Numbered from the stretch's first letter, positions 345 to 38,663 are shown. The stretch is 64,000 bases of DNA from an uncultured candidate division WWE3 bacterium (GCA_963765125.1 CAVXUZ010000004.1:792-64791); one strand, 5' to 3'. Notes: generated by a model not told the origin, from the letters alone. Numbers and translations: made by a program.

Positions 345-359
345 ATCACCAAACCAAAA
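345..359 (+). repeat. 15-nt motif ATCACCAAACCAAAA (copy 1; extended 22-mer CTCCCCCATCACCAAACCAAAA identical to copy at 3318-3339)
   Basis: Exact string match seen directly in sequence; intergenic, ~60 nt upstream of ORF at 420. Confidence 0.8.
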
Positions 360-419
360 TTCTATTTAAAATTCAGAATATGCCTTTAAATTAGTAAAGC
401 TAAATAAGATAGTTTCTGT

Positions 420-731
420 GTGCTACACAATTTTGCGTTCATAGACAGCAACAATCTGTACCAAGGAACCAGAGAGCTTGGTTGGAATCTTGATTACCAA
501 AAATTCAGAAACTATTTAAAAACAAAATATGATGCTGAAAAAGCTTATCTTTTCATCGGTTATATTCCTTTAACAGGACATACGTGCAATGGCACAAAGG
601 ATCGTCGAAGAAAACTCCCCCGAAATGTATTATGGCAAGGCGGTAGCGCAGGCTGCAACACTAATAATAAGATAACAGACACATCAAGTGCCAAAGCACA
701 AACCCCTAAAGTTTGTGCTTTTTTTGTTTAA
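420..731 (+). pseudogene. Possible NYN/LabA-like (DUF88) gene fragment, frameshifted or truncated after ~50 aa
   Basis: N-terminal ~50 aa (FAFIDSNNLYQGTRELGWNLDYQKFRNYL...AYLFIGYIP) resemble NYN-domain N-termini; remainder is low-complexity and an alternative frame looks more protein-like. This suggests a frameshift. Confidence 0.3.
694..727 (+). terminator. Rho-independent terminator (AAGCACAAAC...GTTTGTGCTT + T-run)
   Basis: 10-bp perfect stem followed by TTTTTTT seen in sequence. Confidence 0.55.
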
Positions 732-908
732 TTAACTCCAATACAAACAAAATAGTAAGTAGCTTAGTCTAGCTACTCAATTAGGTATTTAAGGAGGTAA
801 CTATGCACTATAGGTTTACATAATCACCTCTTTAAGGTATAATGCTGAACAAATAAGACTTAAGAGCCGGATATTTCCAATTCAAATCAACCAAAAAGGA
901 GAAATACA

Positions 909-1397
909 GTGGAGCATATGATAAGTAAGAAGCTTGTAGATAATGCGATAGATTTAGCACATCCTCAAATATTGGCGATAATGGAAAACCCAGCCTTTAT
1001 TTGGGGGCCACGGTATGTTTCAATCGCTGTTGTTAGCCCGCATCTGGATAGGATACTTCAGTATGTTGTCAGTAACCCAAAACAGAGAGAATGGAATCCT
1101 GAATGGGGAGAAGCCGCAGAGTATGGGGGAATCGCAATCTGGAAAGCCAAGACAGCTTTAGAAAAAGGCGTGCCTACGTCTGTTCTTGCCAATGACTTTC
1201 CACTCAGTCTTCAGCGAGGGCAACTTTTTCGATATCCTGGCGGTGTTCCTGGACCACGCAATGAATTTGCTGTGGGCACATCAGGTATTATGGGGCGTGG
1301 TGATGAGGCTATTTCCAAAATCATTATCACACTCATGGAAGCTTTAGCACACCTTGAAGTTGACAAAGCTGTCATTGAAAAAAAGAAATACCTCTAA
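909..1397 (+). CDS. Hypothetical protein, possibly GlcG/HbpS-like (DUF336)
   Basis: 162-aa ORF, GTG start 7 nt after AAAGGAG; weak recollected similarity to DUF336 proteins (GG..G.SG motif region). Confidence 0.45.
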   Translation: MEHMISKKLVDNAIDLAHPQILAIMENPAFIWGPRYVSIAVVSPHLDRILQYVVSNPKQREWNPEWGEAAEYGGIAIWKAKTALEKGVPTSVLANDFPLSLQRGQLFRYPGGVPGPRNEFAVGTSGIMGRGDEAISKIIITLMEALAHLEVDKAVIEKKKYL

Positions 1398-1414
1398 AGT
1401 ACGTCACTGCCAAT

Positions 1415-1450
1415 AAGGCACTCTTAGTAACATTCAAGAGTGCCTTTTTT
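1415..1450 (+). terminator. Rho-independent terminator (AAGGCACTCTT...AAGAGTGCCTT + TTTTTT)
   Basis: 11-bp perfect inverted repeat followed by T-run immediately after stop of 909..1397. Confidence 0.6.
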
Positions 1451-1555
1451 ATATACGCGCCTTTGAAAGAGTTAGTATCATCATACTTCGGATAATGTAT
1501 TGTGTTAGGAACCTTGTAAATATTTTGGTCTCAATAATAATTTCTAGTCTTTTAA

Positions 1556-1570
1556 ATCACCAAACCAAAA
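1556..1570 (+). repeat. 15-nt motif ATCACCAAACCAAAA (copy 2)
   Basis: Exact match; lies in a probably non-coding stretch (the overlapping ORF 1495..1722 looks spurious). Confidence 0.8.
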
Positions 1571-1714
1571 AACATATTTTGTATGAACGAAGTGAAATAC
1601 AAAGCGTTAGACTCGTGACCAAAAACGTGTTGCCCCAGCCACTTTTTAATACTGTAACGACAATCTCTAGAAATGGGGGTATTCGCACATTGGAACTTCT
1701 GTATAATTATTGTT

Positions 1715-2179
1715 ATGAGTAATATAAAGAACGGAATATTATTTGAGAAATCTGCATGGGTTGTTTTCCTTGTTATTGGAATACTAATTTTAGTTGGTGC
1801 AATCCCTCATGTGTTAGGCTTTAATACAGACCCAACATTGGTGCAAACTATTAGTGGTAAAACAATAGATGAACTGAAAACTTCAAGTCCCACGATTTTC
1901 AACTTGTACAATTTTTATTTTAGAGGTGGTGGTTTGTCCGATATGGGTTTTGCTTTTTTTCTTATAACCATTTCCGTAACTGCTTATAGGCGGGGGCAAC
2001 GATGGTCGTGGTATGCTTTTTGGTTTGTTCCGATGTATTTTTTAAGTTGGATTGGGCTTAGTCTAACTCTACCCTCTGAATCAAGTTCTTCTTTAATTCC
2101 GCCATTAACGCTATTTATCCTTTTAAGCTTTGTGGGTCTATTGTTACCGTTTAGAAAGTTCTTCCCAAGGAACCTCTAA
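1715..2179 (+). CDS. Small integral membrane protein (about 4 TM helices), function unknown
   Basis: ORF with hydrophobic helices; in-frame ATG at 1715 preferred over the upstream extension. Confidence 0.45.
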   Translation: MSNIKNGILFEKSAWVVFLVIGILILVGAIPHVLGFNTDPTLVQTISGKTIDELKTSSPTIFNLYNFYFRGGGLSDMGFAFFLITISVTAYRRGQRWSWYAFWFVPMYFLSWIGLSLTLPSESSSSLIPPLTLFILLSFVGLLLPFRKFFPRNL

Positions 2180-2424
2180 CTACAATCGTAAAGATCAAGA
2201 TAAGTATTTTTGGTTAATAAAAGTTCCGGTTTGAGACCAGATGTCTAGCCATGCTTAAGAAAAATGTCCTAGATGGTCATTTTTTTCTACATACTTGGAC
2301 AGCAATTTAAATCTAGGTTAAAAATGCCACCTCAAGACTTAGCAAATAAAACGAGCTTAATAGTTTGTATATATTAGGCGCGAAGCGGCGAGTTGCCAGT
2401 TTTCCAGCTAATTTTAAAAAACCC

Positions 2425-2682
2425 TAGTTATTAGTACTGCCAACGGTAACGACCACATCTCCTTTTTTATGACCTTCGTCAACGTATCTGCGAGCTTCAA
2501 CCATTTGTTCCAAAGGGTATATTCTGTCAATTACTGATTCTAACTTCTCTATTTCAACAGTTTCTTTGAGAGCAATTAAATCAGTAGCCTTTACCTTTAC
2601 TCTTTCTAAGTACGTAAGTACATTAAAATAAACTCCTGACTTTTTTAAAGATTTTTTGACTTTTAAATCGAGGTTTTAAAAT
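2425..2682 (-). pseudogene. 3'-terminal remnant of a medium-chain dehydrogenase/reductase (quinone oxidoreductase-like) gene
   Basis: Minus-strand translation ...LESVIDRIYPLEQMVEARRYVDEGHKKGDVVVTVGSTNN* matches the conserved C-terminus of MDR-family Zn-ADH/quinone oxidoreductases. There is no start codon, only ~80 codons are open, and the rest of the gene is missing. Confidence 0.5.
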
Positions 2683-2690
2683 TAATTATA

Positions 2691-3236
2691 TCAACGCTTA
2701 CCGTAAATAGTGTCTTCATAAAGTAAGTTTAGTGCTTTTGAGCAAGCAACCTTTACTTGTGGCTGATTTTGTGTAATTTCAAGATCTTTTATAAACGCAA
2801 CAATTCTTTTTTTTCTATCAACATCTTTAGAAGCAATATTTGCCAGCGATGCAATTGAGTATAATTTAACTACTACGTTGCTTGATGTAATAATATAATT
2901 AGCCAGCAAATTTGACACTAATTCAACTTCCTGGGAATTTATATCTATAATTCCTAATAATTGTGATAATAGCAACTTATTTTTTTGCTGTTTGGCAATA
3001 GTTGCAAATTTAATTATTTTTTTAACCTGAGTATCACTAAAAATAAAATCTTTTTTGGCAATTCGCAAAAGAACCGATACGGATCTAAATCTTATACCTA
3101 CTACTTTCTCATTTAAGGCATCGGTTAGGGTATCTACAAAATCAGTGTTTTTTAGAACCACATCTTCGAGTAAATCGATTTGCCCAGGTGTGCTTAAATC
3201 TCCACCATATAGCAATAGCTTGAATTGCTCTTCCAT
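2691..3236 (-). CDS. Hypothetical protein (helical-repeat-like)
   Basis: 181-aa ORF, no recognisable catalytic motif. Confidence 0.45.
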   Translation of the reverse strand: MEEQFKLLLYGGDLSTPGQIDLLEDVVLKNTDFVDTLTDALNEKVVGIRFRSVSVLLRIAKKDFIFSDTQVKKIIKFATIAKQQKNKLLLSQLLGIIDINSQEVELVSNLLANYIITSSNVVVKLYSIASLANIASKDVDRKKRIVAFIKDLEITQNQPQVKVACSKALNLLYEDTIYGKR

Positions 3237-3324
3237 TGACTTATTTTATCACTTATTGAAATCATATAAAATTCTGAGTTTAAATTTCACTATTTTTTAA
3301 AAAGACTTTTCTTTTTTCTCCCCC

Positions 3325-3339
3325 ATCACCAAACCAAAA
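3325..3339 (+). repeat. 15-nt motif ATCACCAAACCAAAA (copy 3; 22-mer identical to copy 1)
   Basis: Exact match; ends 19 nt upstream of a TATAAT hexamer at 3359-3364 and 32 nt upstream of the ORF at 3371. Confidence 0.8.
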
Positions 3340-7487: not shown

Positions 7488-8150
7488 TTAAAATATTCTC
7501 AGATCGTGCTCTTTAAACTTATAAAGCTCTGCAGGTCTGTGTGTAACTTCTTCTTGCATTCTTCCTAAACTTTCTAACATCTCCAAAGATTTTATTTTTT
7601 TTCGAAAATTTCTTTTATCGAGCTTCTCCCCTAAAACGATTTCATAAATCTTTTGCATATCTGTAAGTGTAAATTCATGAGGAAGAAGTGAGTAAGCAAT
7701 GTTTGTATATGAAAGTTTATCTTTTAGTCTTTTGTGAGCAACGCTTAATATTATTTTGTGATCAAAAGCCATCTCGGGTAACTTGTCTAGAGGAAACCAT
7801 TTAATGTCTTTATAGAACTCCAATGTTTTAATCTCGATATCTTTTGGTGTATTAATGAGCGCAAAGTATGCGACAGAGACAGATCTTCCTCTTATATCTC
7901 TTTTAGGATCACCAAAAGTGTAGAGCTGTTCTAAGTAAATCCCCTTCAGGCTTGTTTTTGCTCTAAGTACTCTTATTGCTGCTGCATCAAGGCTTTCATC
8001 TACCTTTACTAGCCCACCAGGAATCGCCCACTTTCCCTGATAATTACCCGAATTTATTTGAATAAGAAGAGCAGAAAGTACGCCATCTACGACGCTAAAA
8101 ACAACGGTGTCAACAGCGAGTAGTGGGTTTTTTGGCTCTATATCGGTCAT
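7488..8150 (-). CDS. nrtR: Nudix-related transcriptional regulator NrtR-like (N-terminal Nudix domain + C-terminal winged-helix)
   Basis: Nudix-fold N-terminus and basic helical C-terminus (FTLTDMQKIYEIVLGEKLDKRNFRKKI). Divergent from an operon containing pncA and pncB, the classic NrtR regulon. Confidence 0.55.
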   Translation of the reverse strand: MTDIEPKNPLLAVDTVVFSVVDGVLSALLIQINSGNYQGKWAIPGGLVKVDESLDAAAIRVLRAKTSLKGIYLEQLYTFGDPKRDIRGRSVSVAYFALINTPKDIEIKTLEFYKDIKWFPLDKLPEMAFDHKIILSVAHKRLKDKLSYTNIAYSLLPHEFTLTDMQKIYEIVLGEKLDKRNFRKKIKSLEMLESLGRMQEEVTHRPAELYKFKEHDLRIF

Positions 8151-8205
8151 ATTTGATTTATACCATACCTCTTACTATTTGTAAATAATACACTTAGGCA
8201 TAGTG

Positions 8206-8234
8206 TTGACATTACACCATTATGGTGGTATCTT
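8206..8234 (+). promoter_or_regulatory. Candidate sigma70-like promoter TTGACA-N17-TATCTT for the 8321-13981 operon; nearby inverted repeat GTGTT-N11-AACAC (8239-8259) is a candidate operator
   Basis: Hexamers and inverted repeat seen in the 170-bp divergent intergenic region between nrtR and the operon. Confidence 0.3.
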
Positions 8235-8320
8235 TCGTGTGTTAGTGTATAAACAACACCAACAGAACTTTGACAATTTAGACAACTAAAACAACAAGAT
8301 CAACTTGAAAGGAGAGGCTG

Positions 8321-9061
8321 ATGGAACTAAAAGTTAGAACAGGAATAGTAACTGGACGTGAACATCTTGTTTATGGTATTAACTGCCAAGATTCTCTTTT
8401 TGCCAAAACTTTTGAGCACGAGGGATATACATACCATATAGGAGTTGTGTCTGATGGGTGCGGAGAAGGAGAAAGGAGTGAAACTGGAGCCCACTTGGCT
8501 ACAAGTTTTCTCATATATAAAATGGAGAAACTTGTTCGAGATGGGTATTCAATCAAATTTATTTTGAGAAAACTTTATTTCGAATTACTAAGATTTCTCA
8601 AGAAGATACTGACCGCATACGACCTAAAACACTTGCCGGCAGAAGAAGTGGATGTAATTAAAAACCATTTTCTTTTTACAGTTATCGGTTTTATAATCGG
8701 ACCCGATGACACAGTAATATTTGCTGTAGGTGATGGAGTCGTGTTGATAAATGACTTCCTAGATGTCAGAGATCAAAAAAACACTCCTACATATCCTACC
8801 TATCACTTAGTTTCGTCAAAATATCTGAAAAGTGATCGGACATACATTCCAAAAGAATTTGACGTGTACGACGTGAAAACAGAAAATATGCAAAAGCTGG
8901 CTGTAGGAACCGACTCGTGGCAATACGAGCTCGACTCCCTGTTCTTGCTTTTTAATGAAGAGCAAAAAACAACACCTCAGCGCCTAATGAACGTTTTATC
9001 TCAAAAAGAAAAACGCTTCAAAGATGATGCAGCCATAATCACGGTAACAAAAACCGAATAA
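8321..9061 (+). CDS. PP2C-family (PPM) Ser/Thr protein phosphatase
   Basis: VVSDGCGEG and AVGDGVV metal-binding motifs, C-terminal DDAAIITV; strong RBS GGAGAGG. Confidence 0.6.
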   Translation: MELKVRTGIVTGREHLVYGINCQDSLFAKTFEHEGYTYHIGVVSDGCGEGERSETGAHLATSFLIYKMEKLVRDGYSIKFILRKLYFELLRFLKKILTAYDLKHLPAEEVDVIKNHFLFTVIGFIIGPDDTVIFAVGDGVVLINDFLDVRDQKNTPTYPTYHLVSSKYLKSDRTYIPKEFDVYDVKTENMQKLAVGTDSWQYELDSLFLLFNEEQKTTPQRLMNVLSQKEKRFKDDAAIITVTKTE

Positions 9062-9072
9062 AGGAGGCTCAG

Positions 9073-10962
9073 ATGAAAGTATTTGTCGGAGGTCACCTCA
9101 TCAATATGAGTAGCTTAGACGTAATAGGTCCAGGCGGTGAGGGTCTTGTGGTCAAAGCCAAAATCAACGGAAATAAAACTGTTGCACTTAAGGTTTACCA
9201 TGAGAAGTTGCAAACAATAGCACGCGCAAGAAAACTTAAAGCCTTCTTTGCGCAAAAATGGACTTTACCGACAAACAGGATTGCGGTACCAATCGAACCG
9301 GCTTACAACGAAGATAAATCATTAATCATAGGTTTGATAATGCCCTATCTCGGAACCGGCTTCGACGACATTGCACAACTTTCCAATAAAAATATACGAC
9401 TAAGTTATGGCATAAATACCAAAAACGTAGCTCAAATATTTTTAGATGGCCTCGGAACTCTTGAGCAGATCCATTCTAATGGACTAGTGGTTGGTGATCT
9501 TAGCGATCGCAACGTCCTATTCCGAGGAACGGAGATGCTATGGATCGATGTTGACTCCTGGCAGTTTGGTAATTTTCCATGTCCCGTAGCTACAGAGGAA
9601 TACGTTGACCCCAATCTTTACGGGGTTGATCTTCCAAATGCTCCGGCGTTTAAACCTGAAAATGACTGGTATTCCTTCGCTGTCTTATTTTTCAGAAGCC
9701 TCTTAATGGTTCATCCATACGGAGGCGTCCATAAAACAGTAAAAGAATTAAAACGAAGAGCGAAGAGTAGAATCACGGTTTTTGACAAAGACGTGAAATA
9801 CCCAAAGATCGCTTTTTCACCAGACATTTTATCAGACGATTTGGCTCAGGAATTCGACAAGATATTCAGAACTGGCGTAAGGGAAACTTTCCCAAAAAGC
9901 CTAGTCCAAAATTATCTTAATGACCTGACTGAATGTTCAAACTGTCATTCGTGGTACCCACGAAATAGAAAAGGTTGTCCTGTTTGTAACAAACGCACTG
10001 TAGTGATTATCGCAAGAAAAGTTATTGCTAATAAGGGTGTTAGGTCTTTCGAGTTTTTTAAAACCTCAGGCGACATCGTTTACACAAAAGTTAGTAATAA
10101 CAAAATCTTTGTGGTAACTCATGAAAATGGAAAAGCTAAGTTACATACAATCGACCAAAACGGTAACGTTTCAGAAAAACATCTTTCAGATACTTCCGAA
10201 GGTGCCCGTTACACTATGACCGAAGAAATTCTGTCTGTAAATTACGGACACTCACAAGAAATTATCCTGCACGATGTTACATCAAAAAGCGTGAGGCAAA
10301 TAAAGCAAACCGTTACGGAACTTTATGAACCAAACCGTAGGGCAGTCTTTCAAGCAACACAAAATAAAGTCCTTCGCATGATCGGAGGAAATATTCTATC
10401 TATAGAGAAAGGAGGAATGGGAATAATTGAACGATCAATCAGAACTGGTGTTCCTAACCAAACATGGTTTTCCGCAAACGACAGTTACAACGGAATGCAG
10501 CTTTTTGGCTTAATCCAAATACTGCACGAAAAAAGATTCTGGTACCACCTAGATGGGCAGAACTTTGAACCCAGTATTCCAAACTTAGAAATAGACGAGG
10601 TTCTGCTAGACATTTCTGTAAAGTTCTCACATGGAGAAGTATTACTAAGAAGGAAGTCACAGCAAAACGGAGTCGACTTTTTAAGACAAGAAATTGTGAA
10701 CGACAACGGTGAGGTAACTTACTCATCAAGAATTAGGTATGGTGATTATCCGGTACAAGGTATGCACGGGCAGATTTACTCAAACGGTATACTGCTTCAT
10801 GCTACAGACGACGGGATAGTTCAAGAAAAAGTTACTAGCCAAGAGTTCAAGACCTTCAAGCAAACTATGCCTTTTGTTGGAGAAGGAGACATCCTTCACA
10901 AATTTAACAAGGGCATCGTCGTAGTAGATTCAAACTCAATAACATATCTTGAATTAAGATAA
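9073..10962 (+). CDS. Ser/Thr protein kinase-like protein with zinc-ribbon and large C-terminal domain of unknown function
   Basis: Gly-loop GPGGEG, VALK lysine, catalytic loop GDLSDRNVLF, DVDSWQFG, DWYSFAVLF; CSNCHSW...CPVCNK zinc ribbon; RBS AAGGAGG. Confidence 0.65.
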   Translation: MKVFVGGHLINMSSLDVIGPGGEGLVVKAKINGNKTVALKVYHEKLQTIARARKLKAFFAQKWTLPTNRIAVPIEPAYNEDKSLIIGLIMPYLGTGFDDIAQLSNKNIRLSYGINTKNVAQIFLDGLGTLEQIHSNGLVVGDLSDRNVLFRGTEMLWIDVDSWQFGNFPCPVATEEYVDPNLYGVDLPNAPAFKPENDWYSFAVLFFRSLLMVHPYGGVHKTVKELKRRAKSRITVFDKDVKYPKIAFSPDILSDDLAQEFDKIFRTGVRETFPKSLVQNYLNDLTECSNCHSWYPRNRKGCPVCNKRTVVIIARKVIANKGVRSFEFFKTSGDIVYTKVSNNKIFVVTHENGKAKLHTIDQNGNVSEKHLSDTSEGARYTMTEEILSVNYGHSQEIILHDVTSKSVRQIKQTVTELYEPNRRAVFQATQNKVLRMIGGNILSIEKGGMGIIERSIRTGVPNQTWFSANDSYNGMQLFGLIQILHEKRFWYHLDGQNFEPSIPNLEIDEVLLDISVKFSHGEVLLRRKSQQNGVDFLRQEIVNDNGEVTYSSRIRYGDYPVQGMHGQIYSNGILLHATDDGIVQEKVTSQEFKTFKQTMPFVGEGDILHKFNKGIVVVDSNSITYLELR

Positions 10963-10981
10963 CAAAAAAAGGAGAAATAAA

Positions 10982-11914: not shown

Positions 11915-11925
11915 AGGAGATTAAC

Positions 11926-12720: not shown

Positions 12721-12799
12721 ACTTGAAAGCGTAATTATAGGGCAGCATACAAAAACAAATGTCTGCTGCCCTTCCTTATTTAAAGAAAAGGAGGTTTAA

Positions 12800-14029: not shown

Positions 14030-14063
14030 AACATGGACGTTTTGTAAAAGCTTGTGATAAAAA

Positions 14064-14078
14064 ATCACCAAACCAAAA
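14064..14078 (+). repeat. 15-nt motif ATCACCAAACCAAAA (copy 4)
   Basis: Exact match, intergenic, just downstream of pncB terminator. Confidence 0.8.
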
Positions 14079-15260: not shown

Positions 15261-15261
15261 T

Positions 15262-15276
15262 TTTTGGTTTGGTGAT
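15262..15276 (-). repeat. 15-nt motif ATCACCAAACCAAAA (copy 5, minus orientation)
   Basis: Exact reverse-complement match immediately after terminator hairpin. Confidence 0.8.
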
Positions 15277-15786: not shown

Positions 15787-15918
15787 ATTTTTAGTTTATC
15801 ATCTGTAGGTTATAGGATCGGTACTATTATTGTATATCTCAAACCCAAACATCGCCAAACAAAAAATGTTTATAAAATTCTGGTTTTAAGTTTTACTTCT
15901 AGGCTATACAATTTAACT

Positions 15919-22325: not shown

Positions 22326-22636
22326 ATCGTCGCTCGATACTTAAACCACCTCTGCGTCATATTCTCCAAATATCTATAGTGAAAAATATAAGCGACAAAT
22401 AAAATCAGCAATGGAAAATCTAAATAAACCAAATACAGCCTAAGTGTAATTACCGTCGTGAGAATGCACATAAGCATCGCATTACCAACAAAAATAGTAA
22501 CCAAAAGATGAATTAATCTCTCGTGCTGAATCTGTAAAAGCATCGTTTTATGATTTTCTAAAACTTTTACCCAGTTTTCGGTTTGGTTATTTGCAGCAAT
22601 AATGTTTTTTATAGTTTTATCGTATTTTTTAAGCAT
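22307..22636 (-). CDS. Small membrane protein
   Basis: ORF with 2 TM helices. Confidence 0.4.
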   Translation of the reverse strand: MLKKYDKTIKNIIAANNQTENWVKVLENHKTMLLQIQHERLIHLLVTIFVGNAMLMCILTTVITLRLYLVYLDFPLLILFVAYIFHYRYLENMTQRWFKYRATIQEKIS

Positions 22637-25379: not shown

Positions 25380-26969
25380 ATGATTTCGGTTAAGAACTTT
25401 TCGTATTCTTACCCAAACAACCGTCCAGCTTTGAAGAACATAAATCTTTCTGTATCCTCCGGTGAATTTGTATTGATAGCAGGCCCAAATGGTGGCGGCA
25501 AATCAACACTTTTACAAGCAATCCTAGGTGTAGTACCGGAGTACTATGGTGGTGAGATAAGTGGAAGAATTACGTTCGAAGGCAAAGACGTTAAAGAATT
25601 TGGCATAGTAAAACTAGCAGGAAAAATTGGCATAGTTCTTCAAGACCCAGAAAGCCAGATAAGCAACTTGACTGTATGGGAAGAAGTAACTTTTGCGTTA
25701 GGCAATCTTCTTACGCCGCAGGAAGAGATAATACAACGCGGTAAGCAGTCGTTAGAAACAATGGATATACTTCCGCTACGTAACGCGTCGGTTGAAACTC
25801 TTTCAGGTGGGCAGCTACAAAGACTAGCAATTGCAACTCTAGTAGCTTTGCATCCCAGAATTATGATCTTAGATGAGCCGTTGGCAAGCCTAGATCCTCT
25901 TGGAGTAAAGTCTGTTATCGACGCTCTAAAAGTTCTTAAAAACTTTGTTGATGTAATAATAGTTGCGTCGCATTGGCTTGACCCTTTCTTAGATCTATCT
26001 ACGCGTTTAATAGTAGTAGATTCTGGAAGTATCGTTTTAGACATACCGTCAGCAACTATTGATAACCACCAAGAAGAGCTTAGTTTTCACAGCGTTGAAA
26101 TCCCACAGAGAATCTTGATAAAAAAGATTTTAAGCTCTCAAGGTATCAAATATTTTTCCAAAAATGGAAGTCTAATTCTCCCTAATGGAAAAACACTCAA
26201 GCCAGTTCAACACAATGCCAGTAGTAATGCTGATTTTGGGTTGGTGATGGATGGCGTAAGCTACTCATATAGTGGATGCCTGGAAACACTCAAGAATGTC
26301 ACTTTAAGTTTAAGAAAACATTCAAGAACTGCGATTGCAGGCCGTAACGGCGCGGGAAAAAGCACGTTGGCTAGACTCTTAGCGGGGTTGAGAAAACCAA
26401 AAAGTGGTAGGTTGATAATTAATTATCAAACCATATCGATGACTACTCAAAAACCAAGTTTAGGTTTTATTACAAACAAAGTGCTTGAGGAACTGAGATA
26501 TGGATTGAATCTCTCTGAAGCAGAAGCAATTAGAATTCTTGAAGAATTTAATCTTGCTCAATTTAAAGAGGTTTCACCATTTACACTTTCTGGGGGTGAA
26601 CAAAGACGTTTCTCTCTGGCTTTAGCTTTATCATCAAAACCAGATCAGATAATTCTCGATGAACCTACTGCTGGTATGGATACCAATCAAGTGAGGTTTA
26701 TGATAAGCACTATGGAAAAGTTCGATGGTGCATCAGTTTTTGTGACGCACGATCCAAGACTGGTAGGAACGTTCTTGAAAGAAATCGCAGTCATAGAAAA
26801 TGGCATGCTCTTTTTCAAAGGTGTTACATCAGATTTAGACTCGGAAACTTTTTCCCTCTTGGGTTACCAATTCACAAATGCAACGGTAAAGTTTGCTCTA
26901 CAGTATCTTCAAAGAGAGCTACCGATGCTACCATCGCAGATCGAGGTGATACATGAATCTAGCATATAA
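25380..26969 (+). CDS. ecfA: ECF transporter ATPase, fused tandem EcfA-EcfA'
   Basis: Two ABC cassettes (GPNGGGKST / LSGGQLQR and GRNGAGKST / LSGGEQRR). Confidence 0.8.
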   Translation: MISVKNFSYSYPNNRPALKNINLSVSSGEFVLIAGPNGGGKSTLLQAILGVVPEYYGGEISGRITFEGKDVKEFGIVKLAGKIGIVLQDPESQISNLTVWEEVTFALGNLLTPQEEIIQRGKQSLETMDILPLRNASVETLSGGQLQRLAIATLVALHPRIMILDEPLASLDPLGVKSVIDALKVLKNFVDVIIVASHWLDPFLDLSTRLIVVDSGSIVLDIPSATIDNHQEELSFHSVEIPQRILIKKILSSQGIKYFSKNGSLILPNGKTLKPVQHNASSNADFGLVMDGVSYSYSGCLETLKNVTLSLRKHSRTAIAGRNGAGKSTLARLLAGLRKPKSGRLIINYQTISMTTQKPSLGFITNKVLEELRYGLNLSEAEAIRILEEFNLAQFKEVSPFTLSGGEQRRFSLALALSSKPDQIILDEPTAGMDTNQVRFMISTMEKFDGASVFVTHDPRLVGTFLKEIAVIENGMLFFKGVTSDLDSETFSLLGYQFTNATVKFALQYLQRELPMLPSQIEVIHESSI

Positions 26970-27693: not shown

Positions 27694-27734
27694 AAAAAGG
27701 GCAAGCTATTTTCCTCACGGAATATACTTGCCCT
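27692..27734 (-). terminator. Hairpin terminator for minus-strand rsmC-like gene (GGGCAAG...CTTGCCC, T-run on minus strand)
   Basis: Seen in sequence. Confidence 0.5.
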
Positions 27735-27746
27735 TTATGTTACTTG

Positions 27747-28937: not shown

Positions 28938-29334
28938 TAAGCACCTCTCTCTTTTATTATTCTTGCTGTGGATTATATCATTTTATGGTCTTTTATACTA
29001 ACCTCTAGTATTCCATTGCAAGACCGTGCTAATGACTTAACTGCGCTAACGCAGGACCTATTACCAACCGTTTATTTCACAGCACACCCTATATAGTATT
29101 AATGTTAGTTGGCGGACTGCACGATTTAAATATTAAATGTTTATAAATAGAAATATTGTCTAGATAAAACCTAACGCCTCAAAATTAAGTGTTATTCAGA
29201 AATATTATATTTCTAACAAGTTAGTTAATATTTATATGAAATCTAATTTTGTATCGCTCATATTTTAGACGCCATAAAAAACCATTCGTAATGCCAATAT
29301 TGACATGCTATTTTACGTGTGTTGTCATTAATAT

Positions 29335-29859
29335 ATGAAAAATAAATCTGCTCAAGGTTTCGGCGGTCTTCTTGTCTTATTAATTGTTGCACTAATAGGT
29401 ACCTCTGGTTATTTTCTTCTCACAAATAACGAGCAGGTTAGAATGCTTTGGTCCAAAACAAAAACTAAAATCTCAACCGATGAGAAATGTATTAGCCAAG
29501 CAGAATATGATTTACTTGTTGCTCAGGCTTACGAAGCTAATGACGAAGAGTCCATTAAATACCTTGAGGATATGATAGATAAAATAATTTGTACAGCATC
29601 CGTTGAAGGCAAAACACCTGAAATTGAACCACCACTTCCTCCAAAAAAGAGCTCTGATAAATATTCTGGTTATCAATACAATAATTGCTTCTTCTGTGAG
29701 TCGGATATGCAAATGTGTCAGGTTTGCTGGGAAAACGATTTTGGTGATAAGGTTTGCTGTTTAAAATCTGTGCAAGATAACGCAGACGATACTAAAAATA
29801 AATGCGCAGAGGGTGATAGAATCCTCGATCCTGACCAGGTGGCTAGATGTAGGGATTAA
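29335..29859 (+). CDS. Secreted Cys-rich hypothetical protein
   Basis: Signal/TM segment, 12+ Cys in C-terminal half. Confidence 0.5.
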   Translation: MKNKSAQGFGGLLVLLIVALIGTSGYFLLTNNEQVRMLWSKTKTKISTDEKCISQAEYDLLVAQAYEANDEESIKYLEDMIDKIICTASVEGKTPEIEPPLPPKKSSDKYSGYQYNNCFFCESDMQMCQVCWENDFGDKVCCLKSVQDNADDTKNKCAEGDRILDPDQVARCRD

Positions 29860-29983
29860 CTACACCCAACCGAATTTATCTTGATTTGACAGGGCGCCCT
29901 CTATCAATAATACGGCACATTTGACATTATCCCCCCTTGGATTACAATAACCTCAAATTTTTCAAATCGAGTGAAATAAGGAG

Positions 29984-30445
29984 ATGACGATGAAAAAGTC
30001 AGTTGACTACATTCTTCCGTTGTTTATAGTCGCATGGGTGTGCTTAATGATTTTTGTTTTTTTCTACGACGTGGCACCACAAATAGGTGGCGCGGTTTTT
30101 GCAGTAGCTTTTTTAGCACTGTTGGACATCGTGCTTATCTTGATGGATTTAAAATCCTGGTTTAAAAGTGTTGCAGTAGTTTTTCTAGGCGGCGCATTTC
30201 TTAAATCAAGTGAGCAGATTAAAAAATACTACATTATAGTTGTCCTGGTTTTCTTAGCTTCTGCAGTATTTTTTGGTTGGAGCATATTAGTAGCAAAAAC
30301 ATTTTTTCTCGGGTTCATTGCCACACTCATCTTTGAGGCATTGATCCTCGTCATGTTTATAACGATAGCAGTATTCTATACAGCCTTTGAAAGCATGTTT
30401 TCAAAAAAAGAAGATACCGCACCGTTGTCGACAAAAACAAATTAG
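29984..30445 (+). CDS. Integral membrane protein (4 TM)
   Basis: ORF, hydrophobic. Confidence 0.5.
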   Translation: MTMKKSVDYILPLFIVAWVCLMIFVFFYDVAPQIGGAVFAVAFLALLDIVLILMDLKSWFKSVAVVFLGGAFLKSSEQIKKYYIIVVLVFLASAVFFGWSILVAKTFFLGFIATLIFEALILVMFITIAVFYTAFESMFSKKEDTAPLSTKTN

Positions 30446-30452
30446 CCACAAA

Positions 30453-30493
30453 GCAGAGGTTTATTTTTTAAATACCCTCTGCTTTAATTTTTT
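30453..30493 (+). terminator. Hairpin terminator (GCAGAGG...CCTCTGC + T-rich)
   Basis: Seen in sequence. Confidence 0.45.
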
Positions 30494-30504
30494 GGTTTGG
30501 TGAT
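30490..30504 (-). repeat. 15-nt motif ATCACCAAACCAAAA (copy 6, minus orientation)
   Basis: Exact reverse-complement match, adjacent to terminator, ~80 nt upstream of hisS. Confidence 0.8.
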
Positions 30505-30580
30505 TAGGCGCTTTTTGCCTAAAATATTAAGGTACAAACATTTACATGCCTATGGGGGTATGCTATTGTTTTTACCATAA

Positions 30581-31948
30581 GTGGCTGTATTACAGCATTT
30601 TGAAAATATCATGCAAAAAGAAGAAACACTTATACAACCTACGATACTTTCAGGCTTTATGGAGCTACTTCCTAACGAACAGCTGGTCTTTAACTCAATG
30701 CTCCAAGCAATCCAAAAATCATACGAATCTTTTGGTTTTACACCATTAGATACACCAATAATAGAAAAGTCAGAAGTCTTACTTGCAAAGGCTGGTGCTG
30801 AGGCAACAAAACAAACGTACAGCTTTAAAAAAGGTGATAATGATTTAGCCCTAAGGTTTGACCTCACTGTGCCACTCGCAAGATACGTCAGTCAGCACAT
30901 GCACGAATTAATTTTTCCTTTTAAACGTTATCAGATTGGAAAAGTATATAGGGGAGAAAAACCTCAAAAAGGTAGATTTAGAGAATTTTATCAATGTGAT
31001 ATAGATGTTATAGGAAAAGATGAACTAGGTTTAGAAACTGACGCAGAAATTGTTGCTGTTACCTACAGCACTTTTAAAAATCTAGGGATTGGTAAGTTTT
31101 TAATCAGAATAAATAATAGAAAAATTCTTTCAGGTTTTATAAAAAGTTTAGGTATTGGTGCCAACTCTGTTGAACTGTTGCGTGTTATCGATAAACAAGA
31201 AAAAATGCCCAAAGAAAAGTTTAGAGAATTACTAGAAGAGCTCATTGGAAAAAAACAGAATGTAGATAAACTGCTGTCACTCTTAGCCATAAACGGTAAC
31301 TCGAAAGATATTTTTAAAAAACTAGAAGATCTTGGGGTTGGTGATAAAACATATTTAGAGGGGTTAACAGAGCTTAAAGAGGTTGTTAAATACGTAAATT
31401 ATTACGGAGTTCCTGAATCAAACTGGGAAATTGATTTATCTATTGCCAGAGGCTTAGAGTACTACACTGGTACAGTCTATGAAACAACTCTAGTCGACTA
31501 CCCTCAAATTGGTTCCGTTTGCTCTGGTGGAAGATACGATGACTTAGCAAATTACTACACAGAACAAAAACTACCAGGAGTTGGTATCTCCATAGGTCTA
31601 ACAAGATTGTTTTACCAGTTGAACGAATTAAAACTTATAAAAACAACTGCTCAATCACCAACAAAAATATTAGTAATACCTTTAACAGAGTCTTTGTCAG
31701 AAGTTTTCGCAGCAGCAAATAGTTTAAGAGAAATTTCTATTCCAACTGAAGTAAACCTCACAAACAAAGGTCTTGGCAAGAAACTAGATTACGCAAACAA
31801 AATGGGAATTAGGTTCGTGTTGATAATTGGGGATGACGAACTTAAAACAGGTATTGCAACGGTTAAAGATATGGAATCCGGTGAACAAACGCAGGTTAAG
31901 TTAAGTGAGCTGCAGGATCATTTTAAAAATCTAGAAATCTCCAAGTAA
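30581..31948 (+). CDS. hisS: Histidine--tRNA ligase
   Basis: Class II aaRS motifs, YRGEKPQKGRFREFYQCDIDVIG, C-terminal anticodon-binding domain; alternative start ATG 30611. Confidence 0.85.
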   Translation: MAVLQHFENIMQKEETLIQPTILSGFMELLPNEQLVFNSMLQAIQKSYESFGFTPLDTPIIEKSEVLLAKAGAEATKQTYSFKKGDNDLALRFDLTVPLARYVSQHMHELIFPFKRYQIGKVYRGEKPQKGRFREFYQCDIDVIGKDELGLETDAEIVAVTYSTFKNLGIGKFLIRINNRKILSGFIKSLGIGANSVELLRVIDKQEKMPKEKFRELLEELIGKKQNVDKLLSLLAINGNSKDIFKKLEDLGVGDKTYLEGLTELKEVVKYVNYYGVPESNWEIDLSIARGLEYYTGTVYETTLVDYPQIGSVCSGGRYDDLANYYTEQKLPGVGISIGLTRLFYQLNELKLIKTTAQSPTKILVIPLTESLSEVFAAANSLREISIPTEVNLTNKGLGKKLDYANKMGIRFVLIIGDDELKTGIATVKDMESGEQTQVKLSELQDHFKNLEISK

Positions 31949-31989
31949 AATTTAAAATATTTAAGCAATAAAGCAATAAACATTAGGAC

Positions 31990-32018
31990 TTGACACACCC
32001 TATAGGTTGGTATAAAAT
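31990..32018 (+). promoter_or_regulatory. Candidate promoter TTGACA-N17-TAAAAT
   Basis: Consensus -35 and AT-rich -10 seen in sequence ahead of an ORF-free GC-rich segment. Confidence 0.4.
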
Positions 32019-32024
32019 GGTCGC

Positions 32025-32520
32025 TAACAACCTAATAGGAGCGCAGCGTTGAATATCTATATTATCTGCTGTCGTACTCCAATTCCTGACCCAGATCTGG
32101 TCGGGATACAAGGTGGTGATTCCCCGCGTTGCGGAGATAAACCCACCAAAGGTTGCCAACGGATCATTTGTTCCACTTGAAGGGCCGATATCCAATAGGT
32201 TTTATCTAACGATAAACCCATACTGGATATCACCCGACATAGACAGGTGGATCGCGGTAGCCTCTTACTTTGCCCTACCATAAGCAAAGTATGGACACCA
32301 ACTCCCAAAAATAATTTTTGGGAACTTGTATTGACGGAATACATACAAAAACTTGTTGTTTTAAAAAGATCAACCAGAATTAAGCAGGTTGACGGTGTAA
32401 AGAGACTTGGAATGTCAAACTTACACTCTATCGTCTATAGCATAATAAAAAACAACAACCAGCCGTCATATACTTGAAGAAACCCAGAGTTAAATGCATA
32501 TGCAACTCTGGGTTTTTTAT
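32025..32520 (+). ncRNA. Candidate structured non-coding RNA (~490 nt), class unknown
   Basis: Bounded by a promoter-like element and a strong intrinsic terminator. It is GC-richer than the surrounding genome, has only short implausible ORFs on both strands, and no match to RNase P or SRP motifs could be recognised by eye. Confidence 0.3.
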
Positions 32521-32524
32521 TTTC
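32481..32524 (+). terminator. Rho-independent terminator (AACCCAGAGTT...AACTCTGGGTT + T-run)
   Basis: 11-bp perfect stem, 12-nt loop, TTTTTTATTTT tail. Confidence 0.7.
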
Positions 32525-32756
32525 TTTTTTTGGTGATTTTTGTGTGGTGCTTACCCCAGCTAATATGATTCCAGATTCTCTCATGTATTACATATAAAAT
32601 AAGGCTTGAAAAATTAGAGATTAAAACTACTCCAATAGCTAAATCATACCTTTTCGTTATTATAAAAACGATTAAACCGTCGATTATTAAAGAGGCAGCT
32701 CTGTAGGTTATTGCTTTTGCAACGGATCTTTTGATGTGTTCGAGAAATTTGGGCAT
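32517..32756 (-). CDS. Small membrane protein
   Basis: 79-aa ORF with 2 TM helices. Confidence 0.4.
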   Translation of the reverse strand: MPKFLEHIKRSVAKAITYRAASLIIDGLIVFIITKRYDLAIGVVLISNFSSLILYVIHERIWNHISWGKHHTKITKKRK

Positions 32757-32876
32757 AATGCTTTTTTAGTATACACGCAAGTTAGATCAGCGGTTAATAC
32801 TTTTTTAACAAAAAAAATAGCGCTACCTTTATTATCGATAGCGCTAGGCAAAACTTAAATGTGTAACCTAGTTACG

Positions 32877-33122
32877 CTAAAATCGGCGTATTCTTTCTAT
32901 TTCCTGCAGTTTTTTAAAGCTGTACGTGCAGTCTTTTAGATGCTCAAGAATCTCTATGTCCCAGGTAAGCTTTTTGCTACGTTCTTCGATCCTCAACTTC
33001 ATTCCAACAGTAATTTTAGCTGCTGCTGCAGGCTCAACTTGAAGAATGTTACTAAGTAATGACACTGATTCCCCCCAACCTCCTATAAACAACCCATTTT
33101 CATCGTAGATTCTCCAAAGCAT
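32877..33122 (-). CDS. Hypothetical small protein
   Basis: ORF. Confidence 0.35.
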   Translation of the reverse strand: MLWRIYDENGLFIGGWGESVSLLSNILQVEPAAAAKITVGMKLRIEERSKKLTWDIEILEHLKDCTYSFKKLQEIERIRRF

Positions 33123-33175: not shown

Positions 33176-34207
33176 TTATTTGTTTTTTAGCTGTGGGTAC
33201 CTGCTAACTGCGGAGTTGATGATTAGAGTGAGTACCTCTGTAAACTTCAATCCTGCTTTTTCGGCTGTATACACTAAGCAGCTGATTGCATCTGGGTCGG
33301 GGTTTAATCCAGGCAATGTGTTTATTTCTAAAAAGTAAAGTTTGTTAGAATCGTTTAGACGATAATCAATTCTTGCCGCATCACGTACGTCTAGCAACTC
33401 GGCAATTTTAAGACTTGTCTCTTCTACTTCTTTTTTAATTTCTGGAGATACTTTTGCAGGGCATGAGTAGTATTTGTCGTTATCGGCCGCAGTGTCTTCA
33501 TAAATCCATTTAAGTTCGTAACCCGCTACTCTATTAAAACCTTTAGGTAAATGGTCAAATTTTTGCTCTAAAATAGGTAGTACTCTGAAAGGGTTGCCGA
33601 TAATGGTCACAGTGAACTCTCTTCCGTCTACATACTCTTCAACAATTGCCTCAAAATCAAATTCGTTTAGTACTCTTTCAACTTTTTCTATCACTTGCTC
33701 GGGCTTTGTTGCAACGCTGTCATTGTAAATTCCTTTACTCGATCCTTGTGTATTTGGTTTGATGATTACCGGAAAGGTAAGACCACTATAATCTGCGGTA
33801 GAATAATTTGTTTTATTTACGACTTTTGAGCGTGGCGCGCATATTCCATTATTGGCGAGGATTTCTTTAGCGTAGTGTTTATGAATTTTTATTGCGTGTG
33901 TAGTAGGTGAAGAAAACGTGTAAGGAATACCCAACATCTCACAAAACAGCGGTATTTGTGATTCACGCGCGTCGCCACCTAAACCTTCGGCGATATTAAA
34001 AACTAGGTCAATTTCGTTTTTATGTTTTTTTAGATTTTCATAGGCGTCAAGATCTGCCTCTATTTTTATTACAGAATGACCAAGCTGTTCAATTTTACTA
34101 ACAATATCATCAACCACACTAATAGGGTCAAATTCTATGTCTGATTGGTCTGCTTGAAGGGAATACTCTAGATTTTTTCTAACATTATAAGTAAAAGCAA
34201 TATTCAT
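33176..34207 (-). CDS. ddl: D-alanine--D-alanine ligase family ATP-grasp enzyme
   Basis: ATP-grasp motifs, EINTLPGL C-terminal motif. Confidence 0.65.
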   Translation of the reverse strand: MNIAFTYNVRKNLEYSLQADQSDIEFDPISVVDDIVSKIEQLGHSVIKIEADLDAYENLKKHKNEIDLVFNIAEGLGGDARESQIPLFCEMLGIPYTFSSPTTHAIKIHKHYAKEILANNGICAPRSKVVNKTNYSTADYSGLTFPVIIKPNTQGSSKGIYNDSVATKPEQVIEKVERVLNEFDFEAIVEEYVDGREFTVTIIGNPFRVLPILEQKFDHLPKGFNRVAGYELKWIYEDTAADNDKYYSCPAKVSPEIKKEVEETSLKIAELLDVRDAARIDYRLNDSNKLYFLEINTLPGLNPDPDAISCLVYTAEKAGLKFTEVLTLIINSAVSRYPQLKNK

Positions 34208-36064: not shown

Positions 36065-36175
36065 AACTTTCGCCTATAGGGCGGTTTGAATTATACACCG
36101 AATCTGGCTTTGTAGTAATGATATCTTATATTTTGCGTGATACTATATAAATAGTATTTAATTTAATTAATTTAT

Positions 36176-36916
36176 ATGGAAATATTTATATTTTTAATCG
36201 TTATAGCTCTCTTTCTCTTGCCAATGTTTCTTAAAGTTATACCTGAAGGGTATAAAGGCGTCGTTCAATTTTTAGGAAAGTACAACCGAACTCTTACGCC
36301 CGGTCTAAATATTGTGATCTTTCCTTTGGAGATTGTTACCAAGGTAGATATTAGGGAACAAGTTATGGATATTCCTTCACAAGAAGCAATCACCAAAGAT
36401 AATGTTTCTTGCATGATAGACGGAATTGTCAGATTTAAAGTTTTAGAACCCTCTACAGCAATTTTTAAAGTTCAAAATTATAGAAATCAAATTTCTGCTA
36501 AGTCACAAACTGCACTAAGAGATATCATCGGTAGCATTACACTCGATGAGGTTCTTACTAAAAGAGCACAGATCGCAGAAGAAATAAAAATAATCGTCGA
36601 TGGTGCTGCTGAACAATGGGGCGTGGATATTTCTGCAATTGAAATTCAAAATATTGAAATTCCTGCCGATATGAAACGTGCAATGGCACAGCAAGCTGAA
36701 GCTGAAAGAGATAAGAAGGCAAGAATTATTAAAGCAGAGGGTGAAAAAGAAGCAGCCGTTAAACTTGCAGAAGCTGGACAAATATTGTCAGCCTCACGTG
36801 GTGCGTTAGAGCTTAGAACTTTACAAACGCTCAAAGAGATTTCGGCTGATCCGTCTGAAAAAATCATTATGACGATACCTAATTCATTCTTTGAGGTTAT
36901 TAACCCAAAGCACTAA
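36176..36916 (+). CDS. SPFH/band-7 (stomatin-like) membrane protein
   Basis: N-terminal TM + SPFH domain, AEAERDKKARIIKAEGEKEA coiled coil. Confidence 0.8.
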   Translation: MEIFIFLIVIALFLLPMFLKVIPEGYKGVVQFLGKYNRTLTPGLNIVIFPLEIVTKVDIREQVMDIPSQEAITKDNVSCMIDGIVRFKVLEPSTAIFKVQNYRNQISAKSQTALRDIIGSITLDEVLTKRAQIAEEIKIIVDGAAEQWGVDISAIEIQNIEIPADMKRAMAQQAEAERDKKARIIKAEGEKEAAVKLAEAGQILSASRGALELRTLQTLKEISADPSEKIIMTIPNSFFEVINPKH

Positions 36917-36922
36917 ACGACA

Positions 36923-37579
36923 ATGAGACGAGGAATAATACAGCTAGCATTTAACTACACTTTTAGTGATTTTGTTAATATCGTTCGACATATTCCACAA
37001 AACGATCGTGTTGTTCTAGAAGCGGGTACTCCATTCATAAAATTTGAAGGAATCAACGTCATCAGCAGAATGAGAATGTATTGGCGCGGTGCTATCTGCG
37101 CCGATATGAAAATCGCCGATGGAGCTTATGAGGAGGTTAGAATGGCGAGCTACGCAGGTGCAGACTCGGTTACTGCGCTAGGTAGCGCTTCAGATGAGAC
37201 GTTGAGAATTTTTGTTGCAGCTTGTAAAGAATTTAAGATTGCGTCGATCATTGACATGATAGGCACAACCAATCCGCTTAAACGCCTATGGCGTGCGAAT
37301 ATTGTCCCAGATATGGTTTACATTCATAGAGGCCGCGACGAGGAAAATTCGTTTGGAAAGATTATTCAGTATAAGGATATTGCAAAGCTTAAAGGAAAAT
37401 GGGAGATGCAGGTCGGAGCGGCCGGAGGAATAGATAAAAAGGAATTACAATCAGCGATTTTTAATAACGCAGATATTGTTGTCGTAAATATTGTACGTCC
37501 GCAGGATCAATGGAAGGGTGTTGTTTACGATAATGAATTTGATGAAAATCTAAATAAGTTTTTAGCTCTTGTTAGTTAG
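36923..37579 (+). CDS. 3-hexulose-6-phosphate synthase-like (OMP-decarboxylase family)
   Basis: EAGTPFIKFEG, ICADMKIADGAYEE, GADSVTALG, IDMIG, VYIHRGRDEE collinear with HPS/HxlA. Confidence 0.6.
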   Translation: MRRGIIQLAFNYTFSDFVNIVRHIPQNDRVVLEAGTPFIKFEGINVISRMRMYWRGAICADMKIADGAYEEVRMASYAGADSVTALGSASDETLRIFVAACKEFKIASIIDMIGTTNPLKRLWRANIVPDMVYIHRGRDEENSFGKIIQYKDIAKLKGKWEMQVGAAGGIDKKELQSAIFNNADIVVVNIVRPQDQWKGVVYDNEFDENLNKFLALVS

Positions 37580-38663
37580 GTAGTGAAAATCCAATATCTA
37601 GGTTGTTGCCCGTAGCGCTGTCATAGAAAATTTCAACGTCTTTGCAGTAATCTAGACTACCCGTAGAATCTGGCAATTTGTATGTTTTTACGTGATTTCC
37701 ATCTTTAATTGTGTATAGATACAATATGCACGGGTCTGACTCATTTTTTGTTACAACGTAAAAATAATCTTTATCTAATTTTATGCTTCCAATTTTATCT
37801 AACAACTCCATACTGTCATCGAGAGTTGCAGCGTATTCAAATCTTGTCTTTAGCTCACCATCTTCGGTCCAAAAACAAAAATCTGTTAATTCTGATTCTT
37901 CTGAGGGCGCATATGTAACTAATGAATCACCAAACCAAAAACTTTTTCCTGAAAGACAGTTTATTGTAGGGAGATCAATCTGCGTGTCCGTTGGAACATC
38001 GTAAATCTTGTATTCGTATTCCCAGTCTTCAACTTTATTTTTTTCAGCGTTTCTCACGAATATTTTGCTATAGATGCTTGTGGACCAGTCAAAAACCTCT
38101 GAGAACAGCTTTAGGCGGTTTCCTTCAAGGAGTGGGTCAGCAGTAGAAACACTTGGCTTTCTAATGTCTATTATGAAGCTTTCACCTGTATCGCACGTAA
38201 ATTTGGTGCTAACAAGCCTGTAAGGCTCTTTAAGGCCTTTTTCATCACTGGGGCTTAAATCCACCTCGATTTCAACAGCTTCTTCGTCTTCAGTGATTTT
38301 GCTCTTCTCTCCTCCTTTAACGTAGTAGACACTCTCCGCCACTTTAAAGTCTTCGGGCTGACAATAAGCTTTCTCGCCTTCATTAAAGATAACGTACGCA
38401 TCTTCTTCAATTTCATTGGCTAATACGTTTAATTCAAAATTAGTATCGATTTCCTCCAGTGTCGGCGCAGATTCTTGTATTTTAGTCTCGTCGGTGCTTG
38501 AAATTAACTCTGTTTTTTCTGATTTTGGTGAATTTATAAAAAAATGAAGTATGTAAGCACCAAAAGCGAGCATAAGCACCGCTAGTACGACTCTTATTAC
38601 TATTGGATGCTTATTACCATTTTGCTGGTTTTCCATAATGTTCATTGTAATGCCATTTTGCAA
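37572..38663 (-). CDS. Membrane-anchored hypothetical protein
   Basis: 363-aa ORF with N-terminal TM; contains motif copy 7 in its coding sequence. Confidence 0.5.
   Translation of the reverse strand: MQNGITMNIMENQQNGNKHPIVIRVVLAVLMLAFGAYILHFFINSPKSEKTELISSTDETKIQESAPTLEEIDTNFELNVLANEIEEDAYVIFNEGEKAYCQPEDFKVAESVYYVKGGEKSKITEDEEAVEIEVDLSPSDEKGLKEPYRLVSTKFTCDTGESFIIDIRKPSVSTADPLLEGNRLKLFSEVFDWSTSIYSKIFVRNAEKNKVEDWEYEYKIYDVPTDTQIDLPTINCLSGKSFWFGDSLVTYAPSEESELTDFCFWTEDGELKTRFEYAATLDDSMELLDKIGSIKLDKDYFYVVTKNESDPCILYLYTIKDGNHVKTYKLPDSTGSLDYCKDVEIFYDSATGNNLDIGFSLPN
37926..37940 (+). repeat. 15-nt motif ATCACCAAACCAAAA (copy 7, inside CDS)
   Basis: Exact match; encodes FWFGDS on the minus strand and may be coincidental. 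Confidence 0.6.

Follow-up and report, generated by a model that had tools for sequence, protein, structure and literature searches.

The window analysed here, the whole 64-kb stretch of DNA from an uncultured candidate division WWE3 bacterium (GCA_963765125.1 CAVXUZ010000004.1:792-64791), is ordinary chromosome. An open reading frame (ORF)-based gene map gives a coding fraction of 0.881, and the genes include those for HisRS, BipA, TGT, TruB, UppS, Dus, PyrF, a 2-oxoacid:ferredoxin oxidoreductase and a NiFe hydrogenase, as well as an NAD-salvage cluster. The best named relatives of the encoded BipA belong to candidate division WWE3, a lineage of the Patescibacteria (78% identity), and the nearest relative of the HisRS is labeled "Patescibacteria group bacterium". 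The window contains no recombinase, integrase, Xer or transposase gene, and no Rfam family or tRNA. Its spacers hold multiple copies of a 15-nt word, ATCACCAAACCAAAA, which is the subject of this analysis.

The word occurs seven times exactly in the 64 kb, on the plus strand at 345, 1556, 3325, 14064 and 37926 and on the minus strand at 15262 and 30490 (a strand split of 5:2); a recount on the window bore out both the over-representation and all seven coordinates and strands given by a sequence-only reading of this DNA. In an unbiased count of k-mers of 12–18 nt, the 15-mer was the sole over-represented word in the window. Matches to ATCACCAAACCAAAA with at most two mismatches number 13, against 0.39 expected from dinucleotide-preserving shuffles. 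Under a stricter null, in which 400 permuted words of composition identical to ATCACCAAACCAAAA were scored on the real window, there are 7 exact copies versus 0.01 expected, 2 one-mismatch copies versus 0.02, 4 two-mismatch copies versus 0.6, and 16 three-mismatch copies versus 6.1. Exact and one-mismatch copies therefore stand at 7:2, and the near-copies form a weak halo at two to three mismatches that extends into genes. When 30 kb of DNA from a second strain (see below) is added to the window, for a total of about 94 kb of lineage DNA, the density of the 15-mer is about 1 per 9–10 kb.

The repeated unit is the 15-mer itself. In an information profile built from eight independent copies, all 15 columns are invariant, A is weakly preferred at positions -1 and +1, and conservation is otherwise absent within 45 nt on either side. 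The information content is about 29 bits, held in one asymmetric, non-palindromic block with an internal ACCAA-ACCAA direct repeat. In shuffle-controlled pairwise local alignments the flanks are dissimilar for all pairs except one orthologous pair, and direct inspection showed that two pairs of copies extend slightly past the 15-mer, to 22 nt and 35 nt. Folding found no pairing partner for the 15-mer on either strand, and thus no hairpin. The sharp 15-nt unit, the unrelated flanks and the lack of a hairpin mean that the copies did not arrive within a larger element. The proposal of a small dispersed repeat family, with the word as its core, was accordingly discarded: conservation ends at the 15-mer, and neither the profile nor the alignment of flanks brought out a longer element. 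For the same lack of a folding partner we rejected a hairpin, REP or attC-like structure, and the flanks give no support to a tRNA 3' end or a 16S 3' tail, both of which were considered because of a resemblance to ATCACCA. A literature search for the 15-mer returned unrelated primer sequences only.

On the ORF-based map six of the seven exact copies are intergenic (probability of at least six of seven, 1.8e-5), in agreement with the sequence-only reading; this corresponds to about one exact copy per 1.2 kb of spacer versus one per 56 kb of coding DNA. The copies at 345..359 (+) and 3325..3339 (+) have a CTCCCCC prefix in common, which makes up the 22-mer that had been described for them, and a TATAAT does lie 21 nt downstream of the second, which occupies a divergent spacer. 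The first is followed after 60 nt by a truncated NYN-like ORF at 420-731 (+), between these two copies; by eye its N-terminus (AFIDSNNLY...) resembles NYN/LabA-like nucleases, and it is probably a truncated pseudogene, since it is short and has no Pfam match. Three copies are in tandem spacers: 1556..1570 (+), in a +/+ spacer 158 nt past one ORF and 102 nt ahead of the next; 14064..14078 (+), separated by 37 nt from the U-run of the preceding NAPRTase terminator; and 30490..30504 (-), 6 nt past a terminator stem, with the HisRS start following after 107 nt. The copy at 15262..15276 (-) is in a convergent spacer, where its TTTT end prolongs the U-tract of the terminator of a methyltransferase gene. 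The sole intragenic exact copy, 37926..37940 (+), is within a minus-strand ORF of 363 aa with no family match; according to the coordinates it is in frame on the coding strand and reads TTT TGG TTT GGT GAT (FWFGD).

Both one-mismatch copies are also intragenic: ATCACCAACCCAAAA at 26234..26248 (-), around residue 285 of a double-ATPase ABC gene, and ATCACCAAACCAACA at 43340..43354 (+), in an EamA transporter gene. All three intragenic copies with at most one mismatch read TTTTGG...GAT on the coding strand. One-mismatch copies thus exist, although not near 61872 where one had been reported; the match there, TTTACCAAACCAAAA, has two mismatches and lies at 61877..61891 (-) within the TruB gene. 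Another two-mismatch match, ATCGCCAAACAAAAA at 15851..15865 (+), is intergenic, is kept in the second strain and is probably a degenerate family member, its membership being uncertain. Membership is likewise uncertain for ATAACCAAACCGAAA at 22576..22590 (-), also kept in the second strain, and for the match at 33752..33766 (-) within a D-Ala-D-Ala ligase gene.

Strong terminator hairpins adjoin the copies at 14064, 15262 and 30490, an association that had been noted before and that folding confirmed. The U-tract of the terminator runs on into the TTTT end of the 15-mer at 15262 and 30490, whereas at 14064 the hairpin ends 37 nt upstream; in no copy is the 15-mer part of a terminator stem. The distance from copies to gene starts or ends is not constant, an observation that speaks against a role as promoter or operator or at the RNA level, and the occurrence of both orientations in divergent, tandem and convergent spacers does not correspond to any promoter or operator layout. 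By eye, a -10-like hexamer lies 16–18 nt from about half of the copies. The possibility that the complement supplies the -35 element of a reverse-strand promoter (TTGGTG) was rejected: the match rate does not exceed that expected of AT-rich spacers, and some of these promoters would face gene ends. The apparent clustering of copies in the first 38 kb follows from the concentration of spacer DNA there (5192 nt of intergenic DNA versus 1890 nt in the remainder), and regional clustering was rejected on this basis. Cumulative G-C climbs to a plateau at 28–44 kb and then drops steeply, and the gene strands flip there from mostly plus to mostly minus, a pattern that suggests that the window may span the replication terminus. 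A search of the window for XerD arms gave AT-rich noise only, and no convincing dif-like site.

As judged from the sequences compared, the 15-mer is lineage-specific, because it has no copy in DNA of relatives and occurs only as singletons among the unrelated loci listed. No copy with at most two mismatches was found in about 73 kb of non-redundant DNA from four WWE3 relatives (HisRS and BipA loci), where about 8 would be expected at the density of the window (Poisson P near 3e-4). Scans of genome and viral collections with the 15-mer, and of metagenomes with a 17-mer, gave scattered single matches among those listed; and in 2.86 Mb of loci picked for holding one copy, a second copy was present in none outside the lineage, among the matches listed. 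The 15-mer is present in an independent assembly and is therefore not an assembly artefact. A comparable word in the closest relative (locus L368) was sought and rejected, as the repeated 14-mers of that locus are parts of spacer repeats of 75–136 nt between tandem paralogues. These belong to a tandem paralogue array with homogenised spacers (L368 900-5900), comprising five tandem same-strand genes whose spacers have the promoter-like or terminator-like repeats in common.

The second strain is represented by ENA contig ERZ25039527 contig_66444 (loci L126 and L127), which matches the window over 14059-22996 at 98.2% identity and over 30310-32881 at 94.7%. Differences between the strains are unevenly distributed: there are 55 within 14055-15324, none in 15325-16640 and almost none in 15340-21840, with further blocks at 19074-19207, 21854-22238 and beyond 30700. 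The variable tract 14055-15324 is bracketed by the inverted pair 14064(+)/15262(-). Strain-variable spacers number 3 of 12 and include both word-bearing spacers, which have 28 and 10 differences, versus 0 in eight and 4 in one of the other ten; this link is weak evidence, because both word-bearing spacers are in one tract. The 14064 copy is perfect in both strains, the next 13 nt being unalignable and the following roughly 30 nt diverged. The 15262 copy, in a diverged spacer, has one substitution in the second strain and has the same neighbours in both, and the 30490 copy is identical, within a stretch identical between the strains.

Certain copies coincide with structural junctions between the strains, a link that none of the three options of the sequence-only reading (a binding site, an uptake signal, or a repeat core) had foreseen. 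The sequence common to the strains begins 5 nt ahead of the 14064 copy, to the left of which the window has NAD-salvage genes and the second strain has unrelated genes. In addition, the second strain has a 693-bp segment, containing one gene of 202 aa (Pfam 'ParB CE domain'), between two direct copies with 35 nt in common. Copies at gain or loss junctions amount to one of four strain breakpoints and this one bracketed segment, with the other copies in conserved contexts. The second-strain contig, like the window, has no integrase, transposase or Xer gene.

Because exact copies exceed one-mismatch copies 7:2, orientation and promoter distance are not fixed, and one copy is in a convergent spacer, the data favor a reader of very high specificity for the 15-mer over the typical degenerate site of a regulator. 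The proposals of an uptake signal and of a site for a DNA-binding protein both survive. Our tentative interpretation is that the 15-mer, specific to this lineage, would be recognised on double-stranded DNA by a reader of near-complete specificity and would most likely serve as a DNA-uptake-type 'self' tag. We rank this first on account of the sharp boundary, the dominance of exact copies, the indifference to orientation, the permissive placement, the conservation amid divergence, and the narrow lineage. The competence machinery of WWE3 cells would preferentially bind DNA bearing the 15-mer, and fragments bearing it would be imported and recombined more often; this uptake bias would keep the copies letter-perfect, and copies would accumulate where they are harmless, namely in spacers, on the downstream side of terminators, and in tolerant parts of genes. 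The dominance of perfect copies with a thin halo in genes is as expected under a balance of mutation and biased uptake, and restriction to one lineage fits the species-level 'dialects' of uptake words. We infer both the uptake apparatus as the reader of the 15-mer and the density of the word over the whole genome. Natural competence has reportedly been demonstrated experimentally in Patescibacteria. The more specific proposition that this is the first DNA uptake sequence outside the Proteobacteria, a tag of kin DNA in cells of the candidate phyla radiation (CPR), here WWE3, with a receptor unrelated to ComP, is rather doubtful.

The resemblance is to the DNA uptake sequences (DUS) of Neisseriaceae and the uptake signal sequences (USS) of Pasteurellaceae, each a short, sharply bounded, asymmetric word, hugely over-represented in both orientations with perfect copies dominant. 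As with the 15-mer, these words are found in permissive intergenic DNA and near terminators, are conserved amid diverged flanks, and are specific to narrow lineages. Neisserial uptake sequences are mostly intergenic, in more divergent permissive regions, are stringently conserved, and are tied to recombination tracts (PMC2397512), and about half of known uptake sequences are within predicted terminators, with costly reading frames avoided (bioRxiv 10.1101/2025.10.24.684340). Compared with DUS and USS, the intergenic bias of the 15-mer looks stronger, and its host is a member of the Patescibacteria, far outside the two known families.

Several points tell against a self tag. Known uptake sequences are 9–12 nt long, typically number hundreds to thousands chromosome-wide at about 1 per kb, and in Neisseria and Pasteurellaceae form terminator stems as close inverted pairs. 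Here the word has 15 nt, close inverted pairs forming terminator stems are absent (the nearest inverted pair is 1.2 kb apart), and the 64 kb contain no competence gene. In the window the word occurs about once per 9 kb, a density roughly eight times below that in Neisseria, where the spacing is about 1.1–1.5 kb (PMC2397512). The prior for an uptake word is also low, since the literature surveyed covers uptake sequences in two proteobacterial families only. For these reasons (low density, longer word, no inverted-pair stems, no competence gene seen, and known signals in two families) we assign the uptake-type tag a probability of only about 0.35. It is further burdened by the substitution in one (15262) of the three copies common to both strains, and by the two structural junctions at copies, which uptake alone does not explain. 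As regards the latter, dispersed 15-nt identities could serve as microhomology in the illegitimate joining of imported DNA, and microhomology of this kind could explain the junctions if the word is an uptake tag.

Instead, the copies could be recognised by a DNA-binding protein of high specificity that does not act as a dimer and that helps to organise the chromosome or regulates genes globally, as a nucleoid-associated or terminus-region factor would; each copy would be kept exact by selection at that site. This is consistent with the strong intergenic bias, with about 29 bits in one asymmetric block containing the ACCAA-ACCAA direct repeat, and with the conserved island at 14064 upstream of a near-consensus promoter at 14153-14181; and as GC skew and gene orientation both seem to switch within the window, a regional factor is conceivable. 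Nevertheless, we consider such a site somewhat unlikely, as regulators and nucleoid proteins normally bind degenerate sites, in contrast to the 7-to-2 excess of exact over one-mismatch copies here, and the 15-mer does not have the degeneracy and consistent promoter placement of transcription-factor or nucleoid sites: it has no set distance or orientation to promoters or gene starts, one copy being in a convergent spacer. It is also non-palindromic, and shows no regional clustering once intergenic DNA is accounted for. To the left of the apparent terminus the exact copies are four plus and two minus, and these mixed orientations rule out a polar Ter-like or KOPS-like arrangement, and hence a polar fork trap. 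Chi and KOPS differ in any case, being words of 5–8 nt that are frequent in genes and skewed to the leading strand, in contrast to 15 nt, intergenic placement and a 5:2 split. A role at the RNA level, in which the word would be bound by a small RNA or an RNA-binding protein or would be an element of a leader or 3' untranslated region (3'-UTR), would suit the ATCACC orientation, which is predicted to be mostly unpaired, and the four copies upstream of same-strand genes. Yet the word has no consistent strand relative to transcription, being sense on the 5' side of genes and on the 3' side of one, antisense elsewhere, and also present between convergent genes. Rfam gives no match, and two copies are at or beyond terminator U-tracts, so that most of the 15-mer would go untranscribed there; we regard this role as very improbable.

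A further explanation is that the 15-mer is the core of a site for site-specific recombination or insertion, where the gain, loss or exchange of short gene segments takes place in the manner of cassette junctions or recombinase-flanked modules. For this speak the start of strain-common sequence 5 nt before 14064 with unrelated genes to the left, the 693-bp one-gene segment of the second strain between direct copies sharing 35 nt, the bracketing of the variable tract 14055-15324 by the inverted pair, and the 345 and 3325 copies, which have the 22-mer in common and bracket about 3 kb of small genes without family match. The 14064 junction and the bracketed segment are reminiscent of dRS3 and intergenic mosaic elements. 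Neisseria dRS3 repeats have a 20-bp unit with inverted 6-bp ends, are dispersed in intergenic DNA, mark the junctions of variable blocks, and are targets of recombination or integration; by comparison, the 15-mer lacks dyad symmetry, and neither the window nor the second-strain contig shows a recombinase associated with it. Junctions of the attC or Xer (dif-like) type are similar in that single genes or small gene sets, variable between strains, lie between copies in direct or inverted orientation, and dissimilar in that the 15-mer has neither paired arms nor folded single-stranded DNA, and most copies are off variable junctions. Three of the four strain breakpoints are away from copies, and sequence to the right of 14064 is diverged yet homologous, such that the true exchange boundary may be about 50 nt further on. 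Moreover, the 30490 context is identical between strains and 15262 keeps its neighbours in both, a Logan contig shows unchanged gene order over the 345-3325 region, the bracketed genes have no defence or mobile-element signature, and a degenerate halo inside genes would be unexpected for a recombinase site. On this evidence we judge a recombination core unlikely. The inverted pair 14064(+)/15262(-) also encloses a 1.2-kb one-gene segment in a layout like that of a mobile insertion cassette, as would be expected if the copies were residual termini or footprints left by a mobile element, such as an insertion sequence (its terminal repeats) or a miniature element. REP, BIME and MITE elements are likewise extragenic and multicopy, occur in both orientations, and are often at gene 3' ends near terminators; however, they are longer, hairpin-forming imperfect palindromes with a conserved unit of more than about 20 nt, whereas the 15-mer has no pairing partner and its flanks are unrelated. 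The sharp boundary, with no conserved sub-terminal sequence in or outside the 15 nt, largely refutes an origin of the copies as ends of a mobile element. There are no target-site duplications at the 14064/15262 pair, the window has no transposase gene, and most copies are solo, making mobile-element remnants a highly improbable source.

If the 15-mer is indeed an uptake-type self tag, ultra-small DNA-scavenging cells would discriminate kin DNA for recombination. Patescibacteria are thought to be heavily dependent on imported DNA. With a kin-recognition word among them, selective uptake would be shown to have an independent origin here, and the word would provide a computable marker of recombination and species boundaries in uncultured lineages as well as a bait for the receptor. 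If the 15-mer is a recombination or protein-binding site instead, an exact 15-bp word that recurs about once per kb of intergenic DNA would still define a hitherto unrecognised system of genome organisation, in a phylum about which little is understood.

The gene enclosed by the inverted pair encodes a methyltransferase (14388-15194, +) with sub-threshold matches to a daptide-type RiPP (ribosomally synthesized and post-translationally modified peptide) methyltransferase (NCBIfam, 89 bits, cut-off 175) and to PADLOC mad2; both probably reflect generic class I methyltransferase similarity. To the left of this segment, 7488-13981 encodes the NAD-salvage cluster (an isochorismatase-like protein and NAPRTase) beside an NrtR-type Nudix regulator, a PP2C phosphatase, a Ser/Thr kinase and a VWA protein, and the entire block is missing at the corresponding position in the second strain. 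Another strain-variable segment comprises 7.3 kb in the window (22996-30310), versus 2.1 kb in the second strain (L126 7579-9730); the window version contains a nucleotidyltransferase-like gene, ECF-type transporter genes, a methyltransferase gene and small ORFs. At the right junction of this segment in L126, a tRNA-like 5' fragment (with no ARAGORN call) is joined via the common sequence CGGGTTCA to the 3' part of the window gene at 29984-30445. Past the match to window position 32881, L126 12286-21368 has different genes (for a tRNA-modification fusion, rubrerythrin, desulfoferrodoxin and a multi-haem cytochrome); a rearrangement, an island or chimeric assembly could account for this region, and the locus overall has 42% G+C.

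Two genes in the right part of the window also stand out. The gene at 46429-49290 (-), directly upstream of the 2-oxoacid:ferredoxin oxidoreductase genes, encodes a 953-aa fusion of unusual architecture, in which an ADP-forming acyl-CoA synthetase (CoA-binding, ligase and ATP-grasp domains) is followed by C-terminal FAD-/NAD-binding oxidoreductase domains. A 223-aa protein encoded at 62146-62817 (+) has a Pfam match to NpmA, a 16S rRNA (adenine1408-N1) methyltransferase (184 bits), and thus represents a match to an aminoglycoside-resistance-type rRNA methyltransferase in a CPR genome.

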